Source: a virus. From it: a stretch of 64,000 nucleotides of DNA. Below, one piece after another: positions 28,092 through 46,243 of this stretch. Location of the stretch: the IMG/VR virus record IMGVR_UViG_3300001765_000033, positions 30,583 to 94,582 of that record. The stretch is one strand, 5' to 3'. The notes under the pieces are model-generated. The model saw only the letters and a list, made by a program, of their open reading frames with translations, did no database searches and had not been told where the DNA came from. The translations under genes were made by a program, and so were the position numbers. The number at the start of each line of letters is the position of its first letter. The first letter of the stretch is position 1.

Positions 28092-28125
28092 AAGGCCTGT
28101 GGTACAATATCACAGGTCTTTTTTT
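28092..28125 (+). terminator. Intrinsic terminator enclosing extended -10 TGTGGTACAAT (gp43 promoter)
   Basis: AAGGCCTGTG/CACAGGTCTT followed by a T-tract. Confidence 0.75.
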
Positions 28126-28136
28126 ATTGGAGAATT

Positions 28137-29624
28137 ATGGATTTTTATACAGACGTTCGCAGGTATGGAAATAATATTTTGTTTCGTGGAATAAACAACG
28201 GAAAGCAAGAAATTGGTAAGGTAAAGTTTCAGCCGACTTTGTTCGTTAAATCAAAGGACAAAAATTCAGAATGGAAATCGTTGTATGGCGATCCTCTTGA
28301 GCCTAAAAAGTTTGCTGATATCAATGAGGCAAAGGGATATCTAGAAAAGTATAAGGACGTTAATGGGTTTGAAGTTCATGGTATGGAAGATTATCAATAT
28401 CAATTTATTGCTGAAAAATATCCGACTAAGATTGATTACGATGTTAACCAAATGAAAATTTCAATCATAGACATTGAGGTCATTGATCCGACTGGTAATA
28501 CCCCTTTTCCTGATGTTCAGGAAGCTCAAGTGCCAATTGTGTTGATTTCTTTGGTTGATAAAACTTCTGGAAAAACCGATGTTTTTGGCTGGAAAGATTA
28601 CATCAAAGATTTAGATGATAATTTTGAATATCATAATTACAAATCTGAAAACGAAATGTTGAAAGCTTTTGTTGGCTTTTGGCAGCAGAATTATCCTCAT
28701 ATTTTTTCTGGATGGAATACACTAACATTCGATACTCCATATTTGGTAAATCGAATTCGCAGAGTTCTCAGTGATGATTGGGTAAATAAGTTATCTCCGC
28801 ATGGTATCGTAAAAGAAAAAATAAAAAAAGGCATGAACGGGCAAGAGATTCAGACATATGAGATATATGGTATTGTTGAATTAGATTATTTGGAATTATA
28901 TCGAAAATTTACCTATGGTAGCAGAGAATCTTATACTTTAGGATTTATTTCTGAATTGGAGTTGGGGGAAACGAAATTAGAAATTGAAAGTGAATCTTTT
29001 TATGATAGCTATGTAAATCATTATCATCAACTTATCAAATATAACGCCATCGATTCTCAGTTAGTGAATAAGATTGATTCTAAAATGCGTTTGTTAGAAT
29101 TGATTATATCTATTGCATATATGGCTAAATGTAATATGTCAGATGTATTTGGCCCGGTGAAAACTTGGGATGTTTTCATTTACAATTATATGATAACTAA
29201 GAAAATAGTTCCTCCACCTAAAAAACATTCATCTGGTGGTTCGTTTGAGGGCGCATGGGTGAAAGAACCAGTTCCTGGTATGTATGGGTGGATGGTGTCT
29301 TTTGACGCAACCAGCCTCTATCCAACGATCATTAGGCAGTGGAATATGAGTCCAGAGACTTACGTTTCTGATTACAGCGAACCTATAAAAGTTGTTGACG
29401 TTCTTTCGTGTGAGCAAGGTCTATCTAAATACGCTTTCGATAACAATTGTTCGGTAGCGGCAAACGGCACTTTTTATCGAAAGGATAAAAAGGGTATATT
29501 ACCATCTTTGATGGAAAATATGATGATTCAAAGAACTGTCGTAAAAAAGGAAATGCTAAAATTAGAGCAAGAATATCAGGACATTAAAGAAGAGCTAATG
29601 AAACGCGGCGTAAGTTGTAAGTAA
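28137..29624 (+). CDS. 43A: DNA polymerase gp43, subunit A (exonuclease, motif A, first fingers helix)
   Basis: DIEV, FDTPY, YNAID, SFDATSLYP; stops at KRGVSCK*. Confidence 0.93.
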   Translation: MDFYTDVRRYGNNILFRGINNGKQEIGKVKFQPTLFVKSKDKNSEWKSLYGDPLEPKKFADINEAKGYLEKYKDVNGFEVHGMEDYQYQFIAEKYPTKIDYDVNQMKISIIDIEVIDPTGNTPFPDVQEAQVPIVLISLVDKTSGKTDVFGWKDYIKDLDDNFEYHNYKSENEMLKAFVGFWQQNYPHIFSGWNTLTFDTPYLVNRIRRVLSDDWVNKLSPHGIVKEKIKKGMNGQEIQTYEIYGIVELDYLELYRKFTYGSRESYTLGFISELELGETKLEIESESFYDSYVNHYHQLIKYNAIDSQLVNKIDSKMRLLELIISIAYMAKCNMSDVFGPVKTWDVFIYNYMITKKIVPPPKKHSSGGSFEGAWVKEPVPGMYGWMVSFDATSLYPTIIRQWNMSPETYVSDYSEPIKVVDVLSCEQGLSKYAFDNNCSVAANGTFYRKDKKGILPSLMENMMIQRTVVKKEMLKLEQEYQDIKEELMKRGVSCK

Positions 29625-29642
29625 GGTGATAATTTAATAAAT

Positions 29643-29681
29643 GATAAATAGTATGGTAGTCTTATTCAATCAAGGAACCAT
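29643..29681 (+). promoter_or_regulatory. Late promoter GATAAATA plus SD-sequestering hairpin for the HNH gene
   Basis: TATGGT..CTT / AAG..ACCATA stem covers AAGGA. Confidence 0.6.
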
Positions 29682-30875
29682 ATGTTACCAATTAACACTT
29701 TTCATTATGACAGATATATTCGATTTTTATCTCTATTACCAAAAAGAGATAAACCAAAAGCTAAATTTAGTGGATTAGAAAAACATCACATATACCCAAA
29801 ATCTTTCGGTGGAACTGATGATTTAAGTAATTTGATATATTTAACTTGCCGAGAACATTATCTAGCCCATTGGATGCTTGCTAAGGCGTATGGCGGAGTT
29901 ATGTGGTTTGCGTTTAATCAAATGAAGCGAGTCATACAAGGCGATATTAAGAAAAGCAGTTTATATTCTTTATCCAGAAAATATATTTCTGAGCAAATAA
30001 GTATTTCTAATACTGGAAATACTATGAGTGATTATGCTAAAAACCTTAAGACTATTATGTTTTCCGGTAAAGTTTGGGTAAAAAATAAAGATGATTATTC
30101 CGATTATATGTTAATTTCTAATACTGATGAGAGATATTTAAGTGGTGAATATGTTGGAATTCAAACTGGATTGCTTAGGTCTGAAAGTTCTAAGAAAAAT
30201 ATGGCAGATAAAAACGGACTGAGAGGAAAAGTTAGTGCGTATAATATCCAAACTAAGGAAGTGTCGTATTTTTATGAAAGTGAAATTCCATTAGACTATA
30301 TAAAAGGCAGAACCCCCGAATTTAAGAATATAATATCAGAAAGATACACAGATATGAAATTTTATAAGAATTTTGATACTGGTGAAACCAAAAGAATAAA
30401 AGATGGTAGCCCAATACCATATGGATTTATTCTTCACAGAAATTTGGATGATATGCAGAATGGATTGAACAAAATGAACGATCCTAATAGTATGTTAGTT
30501 TATGATGTATCGTCCAAAATTTCAAAAATAATACCCAAAACCGAATTTAATTCAAGTAAATTTTATACTTCTGTGGCTACCACTGCAAATGCTGTTGTTT
30601 TTGAAAATTATGTTTTTGATTCCGTAGATACATTTAATAAACTTCTTCCGGATTTTAAAAAAATTAGTAAAAAAAATGCTACGGATAAAATCAAAATGGG
30701 TAAGCTACAGAAGAGAAAATTCTGTGAAAAATTTAAAGATATGTGTTATAATGATATAGGTTTCTTCGTAATTAAAATTACGGAGTTAGTTTGGAATGAA
30801 GATATGATTTTTATAAGGAAAATTGATGAATCTCTCGCAAATGAGTGTAGAAGAATTGTTATGTGCGAAGCATAA
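29682..30875 (+). mobile_element. Free-standing HNH homing endonuclease (Mob-like) inserted in gp43
   Basis: EKHHIYPKSFGGTDDLSNLIYLTCREHYLAHWML. Confidence 0.88.
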
Positions 30876-32168
30876 TCTTGAAAGTAAAATTTCTGCTTTA
30901 AATAATGAGCAGATGGCGATAAAAATCCTTAGAATTTGTGAGGCTTGATTCGGTAACGAATTTTGAAAACCCTGTGAATTCGGTGAAACTCCAGAACGGA
31001 CAATACCGAGCCAAACCCAAAATGGGAAGCGTGTAACGACTAGATCGAAAGATCGTACATTCAAGTGAATGGAAGCGCAGGGCATCCTATTAGGATGATG
31101 ATATAGTCTGATCTGTATAGGAATATACAGCAGCTTAATAAGCGGGATAAGATTAACGATCTTATTTGAACATAAATGAATAATTCTTTATATGGCGCTA
31201 TAACTCAGAACAGCTTTAGGTATTACATTTTGGCAATTGGTGAGGCTATCACTTTGTCAGGGCAAGCCAGTAATCGACATTTAGAATTGCATCTAAATAA
31301 GTATTTCAATAAAATATTGAAGACTGATGATATTGATTATGTGGCGTATTCGGATACCGATTCAAATTATATCAATTTTGATAGCATAGTGAATAAGCTA
31401 TGCAAAGATAAATCGGACACGATTAATATTGTGGAGTTTCTTGAAAAGCTTGCATTAAAATTACAAGATACTGTTATTAAAGAATCAACAGATCATATTT
31501 TCAATTTGTGTAATTGTTTTGAAAATTTGATGAGTTATAAAATCGATACGGTTTCCGAAAAGGCAATTTGGACTTCAAAGAAACGATACTGCATGATAGT
31601 CCATAGCGCAGAATTGGTTAGGTATCATCCTCCGAAACTTAAAATCATGGGTATGGATATTATTAAATCCAGCACACCAAAAGCTATTCGTGCGGAATTA
31701 AAATCTTGTTTGCCTATTATTTTTAATAAAGGTGAGATTGCTTTAAGAGAATTTGTGACATCCGTTAAAGATCGATTCTATTCTTTACCAGTTTCTGATA
31801 TCGCATTCCCTCGCGGCACAAATGACATTGAAAAGTGGATGGATGGTAATGGATATAAGATCAGAGTGCCTGTTCATGTGCGCGGTTCTATAAATTACAA
31901 CAATCTCACTACTTCATTCCCGAAGTATGATAAAATACGCAGTGGCGATAAAATTAAATATGTGTATCTGAAAATTCCAAACACGATAAAGGAAAATGTT
32001 ATATCATTTCCAACATCAAAAACTTTGCCACTCGAATTTGGATTGGAAAAATATATTGATAAAGAACTTCAGTTTGAAAAAGCGTTCTTAAATCCACTGG
32101 AAGCAATCACTAACGCAATAGGTTGGCAACTGGAAGAGAAGTCAGATTTGAGTGAGTTCTTTTGCTAA
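30826..32168 (+). CDS. 43B: DNA polymerase gp43, subunit B; spliced join(30826..30930,31179..32168), 364 aa
   Basis: AAGGAA SD, then MNLSQMSVEELLCAKHNLESKISALNNEQMAIKIL; splicing gives KIL|NNSLYG (motif B), then YSDTDS and KKRY; ends LSEFFC. Confidence 0.88.
30931..31178 (+). ncRNA. ORF-less group I intron (phage IA2-like), 248 nt
   Basis: Exon CCUU pairs with IGS GAGG (U.G at the splice site); core GAATTCGGTGAAA, ACCGAGCCAA, AACGACTAG, GATATAGTCT; terminal G at 31178. Confidence 0.9.
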
Positions 32169-44507: not shown

Positions 44508-44540
44508 TTTTGTGTTACAATGTAATGTTGTAACACAAAA
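44508..44540 (+). promoter_or_regulatory. 13-bp inverted repeat containing extended -10 TGTGTTACAAT
   Basis: TTTTGTGTTACAA / TTGTAACACAAAA, just upstream of primase. Confidence 0.7.
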
Positions 44541-44547
44541 TTATATT

Positions 44548-45600
44548 ATGGCCGTTTGGATTGATGTAAAGTATCTAAAACAAATTTCTTATAGGTTGGA
44601 TCGCTGGATTGAGAAAAAAATCTCGCCTCATCAATCGATTTGTAAGTGTCCAATTTGTGGAGATTCCCTAAAAAAAGCAAATAAAAAGCGTGGATACTTT
44701 TACGAAAAAGGTGCGTCTATTTTATTCAGATGCTTCAATTGTGATGCATCAATGTCGTTTGGTAAGTTTCTAAGAGAGTTCGATCCATTTGTATACAAGC
44801 AGTATGCAATGGAATCATACAAAGAGAGAGTACAAGACACACCTAAGCCATTAAAAGAAGAAATTTCTCCGTTACTTGGTTCCAAAAAATCCACTCAGAT
44901 TGCGTTAAAACAGGCTCAGACAGAATCAAATTCTGTGCTTGGTGATGCAGTGCCATTGATGACATTGGACTCAAAACACCCTGCTAGATTGTACTATGAT
45001 GCCAGAAAACTGCCTTCTAAATACAATTCCATGTTCTACTTTGCAGAAAACTTTTTCAGTTGGGCATCGAAAAACACGGATAAATTTGAAGCAGCAGAGG
45101 AAAATTGTAAAGACCATCCAAGAATCATAATTCCGTGGTATAATGGTAAGCAAGAATTATTCGCATATCAGGCTAGGTCTATTTTTGGACAAGAACCGAA
45201 ATACTATACTATTGTGCTAGACACAGAGACTCCTAAATTCTTTGGTGTAGATAGAGTTGATCTTAGTAAGAAAATTTATTGCTGTGAAGGTTTATTTGAT
45301 TCTTTATTTTTGGACAATTCTTTAGCTGTTGGTTCTAGTGCTCTAACAACATTTTCCGATAAAAATTTAGATGTAGTATATGTGTGGGACAATGAAAAAA
45401 GAAATTTAGAAATATGTAAATTGATGAAAAAAGCAATTTTAGCAAATAAACAAGTAGTTATTTGGCCCAATAATTTGATACAGAAAGATATAAACGATAT
45501 GGTTTTATCTGAATTAGATGTAAAATCTATAATAAAAGAAAATACTTTTTGTGGTATTAGAGCAAAGCTTAGATTTTCTAATTGGAATAAGTGTTTGTGA
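44548..45600 (+). CDS. 61: DNA primase gp61
   Basis: CPICGDS..K.RG, CFNC, RIIIP, EG.FDSLF, KDINDM. Confidence 0.95.
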
Positions 45601-46243
45601 TATCTATGGCTTGCCATCCTATCATGTGTTCACATCCTAGTTTCGGTTTTGATTTATGATAAAATGGCTGGTTTGTTTTTAATGAATTATAAATTATTAC
45701 TCTAGGGATTTTTAATATTTTACATTCTTTTAAAAATGTTCCGTTAAATTCATATAATATTTCATTATTAATGTCTATAATTTGTATTATTTTTGCCCTT
45801 ACATTTAATGCGCCTTTTCTCTTTTCTGACATTTTTTGTTTAGATTCATTTGTATGTCTTTGATTTCTTGCTGCTTCTATACATATCTGCTTGGTTTCTT
45901 CTGTATGTTTTTTATTGTAAAATGGATTAAGATGCCCAAACCTTGCAGAACCATACATAGGATTGTCTTTTCCAGCAGCACCATCGCCACCATCAGTTAA
46001 ATTTCTAAGGATTCCTGTTTTGTTATCTTTTCTGCCGTACCATTTAATTAATTGTCTTTCTATTGCCAATGCACCTAAATTGGTTAGATTTTTTTCGACA
46101 AAAACTATTTTTGTTTTATTTTTTGGAACTGCTACGTTGTGATGTTTAGAGAATGCTCTATTCTTTTTACCTTTACCTATATAATAGGGAGTACCGTCTT
46201 CTCTTAAATACGCATATACATAATAGATTAATTCGCTGGTCAT
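45578..46243 (-). mobile_element. GIY-YIG homing endonuclease with NUMOD3-like repeats
   Basis: [35 protein letters not shown]; antisense overlap with the primase end. Confidence 0.88.

Follow-up and report, generated by a model that had tools for sequence, protein, structure and literature searches.

An HNH endonuclease gene between the halves of a split T4-like DNA polymerase gene, and a group I intron in motif B of the second half

In the window, which is the whole stretch of 64,000 nucleotides that was analysed and comes from an uncultured phage of a microbial mat, the DNA polymerase gene 43 was found to be broken into 43A and 43B by a free-standing gene for a putative HNH homing endonuclease, and the motif B codons of 43B were found to be interrupted by an ORF-less group I intron. 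Taken as a whole, the locus likely encodes a three-piece gp43 that is spliced and assembled, and carries an HNH selfish element that takes part in collaborative homing. The two halves would be made by separate translation, and the 43B mRNA would first shed a self-splicing intron of 248 nt. The 43A protein and the spliced 43B would then associate without a covalent bond. The chain would be broken at the very tip of the fingers subdomain, where a short C-terminal tail of 43A and an N-terminal head of 43B would replace the tip loop. The anatomy of the locus, the intactness of the catalytic motifs and of the ribozyme core, and the comparative pattern were established directly at the sequence level.

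All features lie on the + strand. Gene 43A (28137..29624, an ORF of 495 aa) encodes the N-terminal domain, the 3'-5' exonuclease, the start of the palm and the first fingers helix. It matched PF03104, the exonuclease domain of PolB, and, over its initial third, PF00136, the PolB polymerase domain, and residues 3-505 of RB69 gp43 aligned to it with an E value of 1e-79. Its translation ends in ..KEELMKRGVSCK before the stop codon, and a 13-residue tail, IKEELMKRGVSCK, closes the gene. Residue 489 of 43A aligned with residue 505 of RB69 gp43 in the first long fingers helix, which places the break at the fingers tip and agrees with the preliminary description, where 43A was said to stop in the fingers. 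In the AF2 model of 43A, residues 454-489 formed a single helix that continued through the tail. The residues of exonuclease motifs I-III (DxE; Nx2-3FD; Yx3D), namely D112/E114, N194/D199/Y202 and Y302/D306, were invariant in the alignments, as were those of motif A (DxxSLYPS), present as SFDATSLYP. The 57-nt intercistronic spacer (29625..29681) contains the HNH gene's ribosome binding site (AAGGAA, 29672-29677); it also contains two in-frame stops, as seen in the stop-to-stop frames, and therefore allows no read-through fusion.

The second half of the gene begins inside the 3' end of the HNH gene, where the preliminary description had pointed out an unannotated start, and this start was found in the sequence: a ribosome binding site, AAGGAA (30813..30818), lies within the HNH coding sequence 7 nt upstream of ATG 30826. 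Exon 1 of 43B (30826..30930) begins MNLSQMSVEELLCAKHNLESKISALNNEQMAIKIL and comprises 35 codons, which encode a head of about 15 residues, MNLSQMSVEELLCAK, and the first part of the second fingers helix, as far as K-I-L in motif B. It overlaps the end of the HNH ORF by 50 nt, and the 43B start likewise overlaps the HNH 3' end in three relatives, L083, L084 and L085. Exon 2 (31179..32168, an ORF of 329 codons plus the stop) encodes NNSLYG of motif B, motif C (YxDTDS, here AYSDTDS), the remaining palm and the thumb. It gave a partial match to PF00136 and was 65% identical to residues 485-832 of the unsplit relative P0002. At the fingers tip, P0002 (72% identical) reads ..EQEYQD-THNSD-LVGKISALNNEQMAIKILANSGYG, and the same stretch of the window reads ..EQEYQD-IKEELMKRGVSCK and a stop, then MNLSQMSVEELLCAKHN-LESKISALNNEQMAIKIL up to the intron and NNSLYG after it. 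When residues 380-495 of 43A and the 35-aa peptide of exon 1 were submitted as alignments to a complex prediction, the score was 0.13 (mark 0.32), which speaks neither for nor against contact.

Excision of positions 30931-31178 yielded ..AIKIL-NNSLYGAITQ.., i.e. an in-frame KxxxNSxYG, so that motif B (K-I-L and N-N-S-L-Y-G) is complete only once the intron is removed. This agreement between the splicing frame and motif B is far beyond chance. The exonuclease and polymerase motifs were all intact over the three coding pieces in the alignments and translation. The split gene 43 gave the only PolB matches in the 94.6-kb record, and gene 43 as a whole is therefore apparently under selection.

The intron itself (30931..31178, 248 nt) has helices P1-P9, P7.1/P7.2 and two 3' hairpins and contains no ORF; the HNH stop lies 55 nt upstream of its insertion site. 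A covariance-model scan, proposed earlier as a check, matched Rfam RF00028 to positions 30921-31130 over its full length (model positions 1-253) with 96.2 bits and an E value of 1.2e-24, the gathering score being 50 bits. A separate genome search with RF00028 over the record that contains the window gave no match, which was taken to be a miss by the filter of that search. The final U of exon 1 (U30930) pairs with G in P1 (CCUU/GAGG), and the intron ends in G31178; both features, like the KIL-NNSLYG junction, bore out the preliminary description, in which every coordinate and sequence given proved right. The fold had a z-score of -3.3 with its helices recovered, and compensatory changes were found in 33 of 65 pairs when four homologues were compared. 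The U.G pair at the splice site was present in all four homologous introns, in differing exon contexts, and the P1 guide co-varied with the exon: the window has CCUU/GAGG, L083 has CGUU/GGCG, L085 has UCGU/GCGA and L069 has CGCU/GGUG. The 3' end was also conserved among homologues as GAACATAA(A)TG. The ribozyme core is intact, and splicing is predicted from it. Among cultured phages, megablast with the region found no match, and the intron core was the only match found by blastn.

The HNH gene (29682..30875, an ORF of 397 aa) encodes a putative free-standing Mob-like homing endonuclease. It matched PHROG 655, 'homing endonuclease', with an E value of 5e-30; the Pfam HNH model scored 20.1 bits, slightly under its cut-offs of 21.4 and 27.5, and HNH_5 scored 20 bits. 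Residues E33, H35, H36, N50, H59 and H63 were invariant in an alignment of five family members. Every one of its close relatives (L083-L085, L093-L098, L106 and L107) lay between 43A and 43B, and the gene was missing from the closest polymerase relatives of the window, i.e. its distribution is sporadic at a fixed genomic site. In L097 and L106 the gene seems to be spread over two overlapping frames and is possibly decaying. A related HNH gene was found antisense within the gp43 split of Acinetobacter phages and of L092, with no intron. As far as gene content indicates, an intron partner is not strictly required by the HNH family, since L084, L092 and the Acinetobacter phages carry the HNH gene without one. 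No exact T4 late promoter, TATAAATA, was found near the HNH gene, and sigma-70 and terminator scans returned nothing interpretable except two hairpins.

The split was also studied across related polymerases. A tail of the form ..[IV]K.EL..RG[IV].. followed by a stop, and a head of the form M..[ST].[DE]ELL.L.., recurred in many split gp43 genes and aligned with RB69's fingers tip, which is long and unsplit. The helical extensions on each side of the break, which had been described as new, are therefore not peculiar to this lineage. The split with these same motifs was scattered over metagenomic T4-like polymerases, and a tree of 119 polymerases called for no fewer than 15 changes of the split state; the closest polymerase relatives of the window (72% and 68% identical) were unsplit. 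In the AF2 model of the intron-less 43B of L084, mean pLDDT was 56, and the head region was below 50, too low for the model to be of use.

The motif B DNA was interrupted in 10 of the 11 distinct loci with a same-strand HNH gene, by an intron in eight and by a 1-nt insertion in two, and in none of the 72 unsplit loci, a contrast that is descriptive only, the loci being phylogenetically related and collected by searches with different queries. Among six split loci without an endonuclease, one was interrupted. The interrupting introns occupied at least three positions and belonged to at least two types; the gaps of L094 and L106, for which Rfam gave no match, were classed as group I introns by eye only, from P1 pairing and P7-like strings. 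For the intron of L093, the placement of the splice junction is ambiguous. The remaining HNH relative, L084, had an uninterrupted motif B. The 1-nt insertion of L095 and L096 falls in AAGGUG-NNN-CUU-UAA-Y, which looks like a prfB-type programmed +1 frameshift site; two pattern scans of viral contigs for more such cassettes found none within a polymerase. The HNH family at the gp43 split, the interrupted motif B and the co-varying P1 together strengthen the logic put forward earlier, namely that an active polymerase would need both protein complementation and RNA splicing and that the HNH enzyme may act on intron-less motif B, and this logic can be regarded as supported.

Like splicing and the assembly of 43A with 43B, the cleavage site of the HNH enzyme is a prediction from these data. 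The HNH gene would be a selfish element settled in the intercistronic gap, and its likeliest target would be motif B DNA that related phages carry uninterrupted, at a site about 50 nt from the HNH stop. The intron would shield the genome that carries it, and when a cut genome was repaired, the HNH gene, exon 1 and the intron would be copied in together. The sequences are consistent with such collaborative homing. A broader proposal, offered tentatively and with somewhat less than an even chance of being right, is that a single mobile module with loose boundaries, made up of the fingers-tip split, the tail and head, the HNH gene and the interruption of motif B, moves among very distant T4-like phages. 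The HNH family would recognise uninterrupted motif B, and immunity could be conferred by any break that spares the protein, either a group I intron (of two or more types, with guides that have been retargeted to four or more positions in a stretch of 22 nt) or the +1 frameshift insertion of L095 and L096.

A rather less probable explanation, which nevertheless deserves weight, is trans homing. The HNH enzyme would cut or nick elsewhere in gene 43, for example in the fingers-tip DNA of unsplit or endonuclease-less alleles, and the intron would be a hitch-hiker in the co-conversion tract. There is a precedent in T4 MobE, which mobilises the nrdB intron but does not nick the site where that intron inserts (PMC2790892); moreover, the HNH gene sits at the split with no intron in L084, L092 and the Acinetobacter phages, and it is associated more generally with the split site than with the intron. 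However, trans homing leaves unexplained why nearly all same-strand HNH loci, and no unsplit locus, have motif B interrupted, and by unrelated means. It is improbable that the HNH gene is instead an inactive passenger beside a split and an intron that have become fixed and no longer move. Phage homing endonucleases often degenerate, I-TevIII being an example (PMC2790892), and the two-frame HNH genes of L097 and L106 would fit such a fate, but the HNH ORF of the window is full length with all motif residues present, and the whole cassette is absent from the closest polymerase relatives. In addition, HNH and exon 1 pieces 97-99% identical to those of the window were found in a groundwater metagenome, a different habitat, beside a 43A piece that was only 85% identical.

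It is very unlikely that, with no splicing, 43B starts at ATG 31176 (MNNSLYG..) and exon 1 is a separate 41-aa peptide, giving either three subunits or a polymerase without the motif B lysine. The last three intron bases do supply an ATG that opens an ORF at 31176-32168, but no ribosome binding site is evident upstream of it, and ..ATG before the exon belongs to the conserved intron 3' end, also where the next exon base is out of frame. Furthermore, the lysine of KxxxNSxYG would drop out of the chain, and the ribozyme core is intact at 96 bits.

Only a very small probability attaches likewise to an assembly chimera, in which the intron halves, and hence exons 1 and 2, would derive from different phages sharing an intron core. 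When the probable source run was assembled independently into unitigs, these spanned 29490-31001 and 30985-31387; the unitigs broke inside the intron core (30985-31001), where summed depth reached up to 46, as chimerism would allow, but this depth is accounted for by related introns in the sample. Depth was even on either side (about 8.6 and 9.2), both halves matched the one relative P0002 (68% and 65%), the long-range P3 and P7 pairs across the break were intact, and L083 has the same order and insertion site. A single read-layout joint, 29503 to 30953, seen in one contig with only 29 letters on the short side, corresponds to no plausible allele and was dismissed as an artefact of a repeat or of another organism. 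Finally, the idea of a fractured gene, with the 43A tail and the 43B head as the two parts of a split intein that would join the polymerase by trans-splicing to a single chain, has practically no probability left: metagenomic 'fractured genes' with free-standing endonucleases exist for other replication genes (PMC2677866), and inteins occur in the related polymerases P0053, P0095 and P0105 and in exon 2 of L097 and L107, but a 13-residue tail and a head of about 15 residues are far too short, which excludes it, and there is neither an intein Pfam match nor a Cys/Ser/Thr nucleophile context at the junctions.

The three-part layout of split gene 43, free-standing endonuclease and ORF-less 43B intron was first described in 2010 for Aeromonas phage 25 (Petrov, Ratnayaka, Karam, J Mol Biol; summarised in the reviews PMC2988022 and PMC2993671), a precedent on which the preliminary description was silent. 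According to these reviews, the split subunits of Aeromonas phages 25 and 44RR co-purify and the polymerase is active, the phage 25 intron self-splices, and its free-standing endonuclease cuts intron-free 43B. The window is therefore not a new kind of system, since phage 25 of Aeromonas salmonicida, whose layout was read anew for comparison, has the same three elements: the same fingers-tip split with a related tail (..IKKILASRGIKTDH in phage 25 and ..IKEELMKRGVSCK in the window, each before a stop), an endonuclease gene between the halves that ends at the 43B start, and an ORF-less intron, 25.g43B, of the same family in the motif B codons, with the 3' end ..GATTAACGA..GAA.AACATG common to both. 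In contrast to the HNH enzyme of the window, the phage 25 endonuclease is GIY-YIG (seg-like, 267 aa), and its intron is 347 nt long and follows YGA-L(1), 22 nt downstream of the site in the window. The two polymerases are only about 35% identical, and phage 25 grows on cultured Aeromonas. What sets the window apart from phage 25 is thus the nuclease family and the intron position.

Similar arrangements were recognised in other phages. Escherichia phage vB_EcoM_G2285 (Mosigvirus, MK327933) has 43A (ending ..IIKEILASK), an endonuclease, an exon 1 (MNLTYTQDFSQDEISYL..) whose head shares its initial MNL with that of the window, and a group I intron, but it is of the phage 25 type, with a GIY-YIG endonuclease and the intron after YGAL. 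Its gene 43 annotation reads 'unable to determine intron/exon boundaries'. The Lazarusvirus phages of Acinetobacter, among them Apostate and AB-Navy4, share the gp43A/gp43B split, with the tail ..VIKKLMK, and a 'MobE mobile endonuclease' of the same HNH family (25-31% identical), the best cultured-phage match to that of the window; unlike in the window, this gene is on the opposite strand, the gap holds five small ORFs and 43B has no intron. A free-standing endonuclease beside an endonuclease-less intron is also found in collaborative homing, as with F-CphI and the cyanophage S-PM2 psbA intron or in T3/T7-like phages, and in trans homing by T4 MobE, a Mob-group HNH enzyme, with the nrdB intron (PMC2790892, PMC10448857, PMC6083498). 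In all of these cases the host genes are intact, whereas the endonuclease of the window also occupies a break in its host gene. In Aeromonas phage Aeh1, the essential nrdA is cut in two by the Mob-type HNH gene mobE (Crona et al., PMC3045599), and function requires the short tails, C-terminal on one side of the break and N-terminal on the other, through which the parts assemble (PMC3045599); that case differs in concerning ribonucleotide reductase, in having no intron, and in that the gp43 tail and head align with the pre-existing long fingers tip of T-even polymerases.

By itself, the window adds one more case of a documented kind: as two selfish elements have lodged in its gene, an essential replicative polymerase would depend on RNA splicing as well as on the assembly of subunits. 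Gene callers overlook the 35-codon exon, so that 43B ends up labelled as truncated or hypothetical, and the same error is present in public records such as MK327933. Together with the related loci, the window indicates that the phage 25 layout is no Aeromonas oddity but a recurrent, labile state in environmental T4-like phages, in which the endonuclease may be swapped, HNH for GIY-YIG, and introns of one family lie at several neighbouring sites with a guide that matches the site in each case. As a natural series, these loci can serve to study the way in which cooperation arises between free-standing endonucleases and introns without an ORF, and how far the fingers domain of PolB tolerates fragmentation.

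The preliminary description had proposed that gene 43, encoding the family-B DNA polymerase gp43, is split by an HNH gene and that its second part contains a group I intron, and this organization was borne out. The N-terminal part, 43A (28137-29624, 495 residues), carries the exonuclease domain of PolB together with the beginning of the polymerase domain. Because its alignment with RB69 gp43 (residues 3-505, E 1e-79) reaches residue 505, 43A ends within the first long fingers helix, in agreement with the stop in the fingers noted before. After a 57-nt spacer containing its own AAGGAA, 43A is followed by the HNH gene of 397 codons (PHROG 655, E 5e-30), the HNH residues of which are invariant in the alignment of its relatives. 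The start of the C-terminal part, 43B (AAGGAA-N7-ATG, with the ATG at 30826), indeed lies within the 3'-terminal part of the HNH coding sequence, and the first 43B exon has 35 codons ending in ..AIKIL. A complete group I intron was detected at 30921-31130 by the Rfam covariance model (96.2 bits, E 1.2e-24). As read from the sequence, U30930.G in P1 and the final intron base G31178 set the predicted splice geometry of the intron (30931-31178), and exon joining of KIL to NNSLYG would restore motif B, as had been described; exon 2 encodes motif C and the thumb.

The IMG/VR record containing this locus is a 94.6-kb sequence of an uncultured virus with an estimated completeness of 53%. The window harbors a T4-like gene set (rIIA, clamp loader, UvsX and gp41-type helicase), and no second PolB was found across the 94.6-kb record. 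Unitigs assembled independently from the probable source run, a microbial-mat metagenome, spanned all of the junctions; the sole break fell within the intron core, a sequence that recurs in that sample. At 28092-28120, 17 nt upstream of the 43A start codon, there is a strong hairpin of 13 bp with a run of T after it. This hairpin may terminate the upstream gene; alternatively, it may serve as a translational operator, in analogy to the autoregulation of T4 gp43. Elsewhere in the window, a second likely homing endonuclease gene (45581-46243, minus strand, 221 aa, NUMOD3 motif E 6e-8) is antisense to, and located at the 3' end of, the gene at 44512-45600.

The genomic position of the HNH family was also studied. 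All three IMG/VR relatives of the HNH gene (loci L083-L085) were located between 43A and 43B, as were the best matches from the metagenome scan (L092-L098, L106 and L107); in L129, the HNH gene follows 43A, and 43B was not seen downstream. In cultured phages, the best matches were the 'MobE' genes that lie, in antisense orientation, within the gp43 split annotated for Acinetobacter Lazarusvirus phages. In 11 distinct loci, the HNH gene was on the same strand and directly upstream of 43B. Motif B was interrupted by an intron in eight of these, including L094 and L106, whose introns are of a different, Rfam-silent type recognized by eye alone; a single extra T was present in two (L095 and L096), and motif B was uninterrupted in one (L084). 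The motif B region was uninterrupted in 72 of the 72 unsplit viral loci covering it, a contrast with the HNH loci that is descriptive, the sets coming from different queries and containing relatives. Among split loci without an endonuclease, only one of six had an intron. This descriptive contrast is what collaborative homing, the mobilization of an ORF-less intron by an adjacent free-standing endonuclease cutting intron-less alleles, would predict, and simple hitch-hiking would not. In a groundwater metagenome, the HNH gene and exon 1 were matched by short contigs at 97-99% identity, adjoining a 43A piece of only 85% identity, which is a weak hint of recent transfer.

Introns of the same type were found in L083, L085 (the same phage as L098), L069, L093, L097 and L107, and a more distant one was found in phage 25. 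The homologues had 72% column identity and the 3' end GAACATAA(A)TG in common. Counted from the start of the lysine codon in motif B, the insertion point was nt 9 in the window and L083, nt 19 in L085, L097 and L107, nt 20 in L069, and nt 31 in phage 25 and phage G2285; protein P0101, a polymerase relative, likewise terminates at ..KIL, the nt 9 site. In an alignment of four introns, 33 of 65 predicted pairs showed compensatory changes. The splice-site U.G was kept in all four, and the remainder of P1 changed together with the exon; therefore, each intron copy is fitted to its own site. Such fitting would be expected of working ribozymes and not of decaying insertions. The intervening sequences of L094 (5215-5425) and L106 (1955-2215) lie in the Leu codon of NS-L-YG and, by eye, have a P1 pairing, a terminal G and the P7-like strings ..CAGAGACTA.. 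and ..TATAGTC... An Rfam search gave no match to them even at E 0.1, and they probably represent a type of group I intron too divergent for the Rfam model.

L095 (1115-1290) and L096 (1378-1560) are metagenome contigs with a related HNH gene between 43A and 43B, in which the extra T within motif B breaks the 43B frame. L095 reads ..AAA AAG GTG TTA CTT TAA C.. (MAKKVLL, stop) and continues as NAGYGAL in the +1 frame; L096 reads ..AGA AAG GTG CAA CTT TAA T.. (IARKVQL, stop) and likewise continues in +1, as NACYGALGN. Both fit AAGGUG-NNN-CUU-UAA-Y, the arrangement of the programmed +1 frameshift site in E. coli prfB: an SD-like element, a 3-nt spacer, a CUU slip codon and a stop. No megablast similarity was detected between the two contigs, and the downstream frame lacks its own start codon. 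Each is a candidate site of programmed +1 frameshifting within a phage DNA polymerase gene. The extra T is possibly another means of disrupting an endonuclease target.

Both of the closest polymerases, P0002 (72% identical, 833 residues) and P0003 (68%, 836 residues), are unsplit single chains. In their alignment with the window polymerase, the five-residue fingers tip THNSD is replaced by the 43A tail IKEELMKRGVSCK, ending in a stop, and the 43B head MNLSQMSVEELLCAK. In an AlphaFold2 model of 43A (pLDDT 83), helix 454-489 was continuous through the tail. The helical extensions had been proposed to be new; tail and head do exist, but from sequence comparison they are not unique to the window phage and recur in other split gp43. 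Fourteen of the 120 best protein relatives have 483-501 residues and terminate as ..[IV]K.EL..RG[IV].., and the viral contigs L023, L024, L056, L062, L066 and L069 are split at the identical point. The 43B heads have M..[ST].[DE]ELL.L in common. Tail and head both align to the long unsplit fingers tip of RB69, and G2285, a close relative of RB69, is split exactly at that tip. On a tree of the N-terminal parts of 119 polymerases, the split state required 17 changes, at least 15 of them being forced by well-supported branches. Considering that identity within pairs of one split and one unsplit polymerase also reached 84%, the split has often been gained, lost or moved sideways.

In the split gp43 locus of L066 (2789-3718), the gap between 43A and 43B is occupied not by an endonuclease gene but by one resembling PurM (Pfam AIRS and AIRS_C, E 1e-21 to 1e-24). 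The split is a slot into which cargo genes are inserted. Some related polymerases have an intein in the C-terminal half (L097:3031-3837, L107:5551-7359, P0053, P0095 and P0105), as judged from Pfam PF14890 for P0053 and from intein-like ..VTEDHS..V.R.G.. stretches in the others; L097 and L107 combine split, HNH gene, intron and intein within one polymerase gene.

Broken gp43 genes were described in several T4-like phages by Dassa et al. (PMC2677866). In Aeromonas phage 25, 43A (498 aa) is followed by a seg-like endonuclease gene of the GIY-YIG family and by 43B, which contains an ORF-less intron of group IA2. According to reviews, the split subunits co-purify and are active, the intron, which has no endonuclease of its own, was predicted to rely on the free-standing enzyme, and in phage 44RR the split occurs alone (PMC2988022, PMC2993671). 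T4 MobE mobilizes the nrdB intron in trans with the insertion site uncut (PMC2790892), and in mobE-split Aeh1 NrdA the tails are required for function (PMC3045599). Escherichia phage vB_EcoM_G2285 (MK327933, 29902-33703), whose polymerase is annotated 'unable to determine intron/exon boundaries', has the layout of phage 25: 43A (506 aa), a GIY-YIG gene, and 43B exon 1 (MNLTYTQDF..) with a group I intron after YGAL. In contrast to phage 25, the window endonuclease is a Mob-like HNH and the intron site is 22 nt further upstream; a 43B start that lies inside the HNH 3' end, and a very divergent host phage, also distinguish the window locus. The mechanistic reading of split, intron and HNH in the preliminary description is reasonable, and the locus is a further member of the phage 25-like kind, not a new kind of system.
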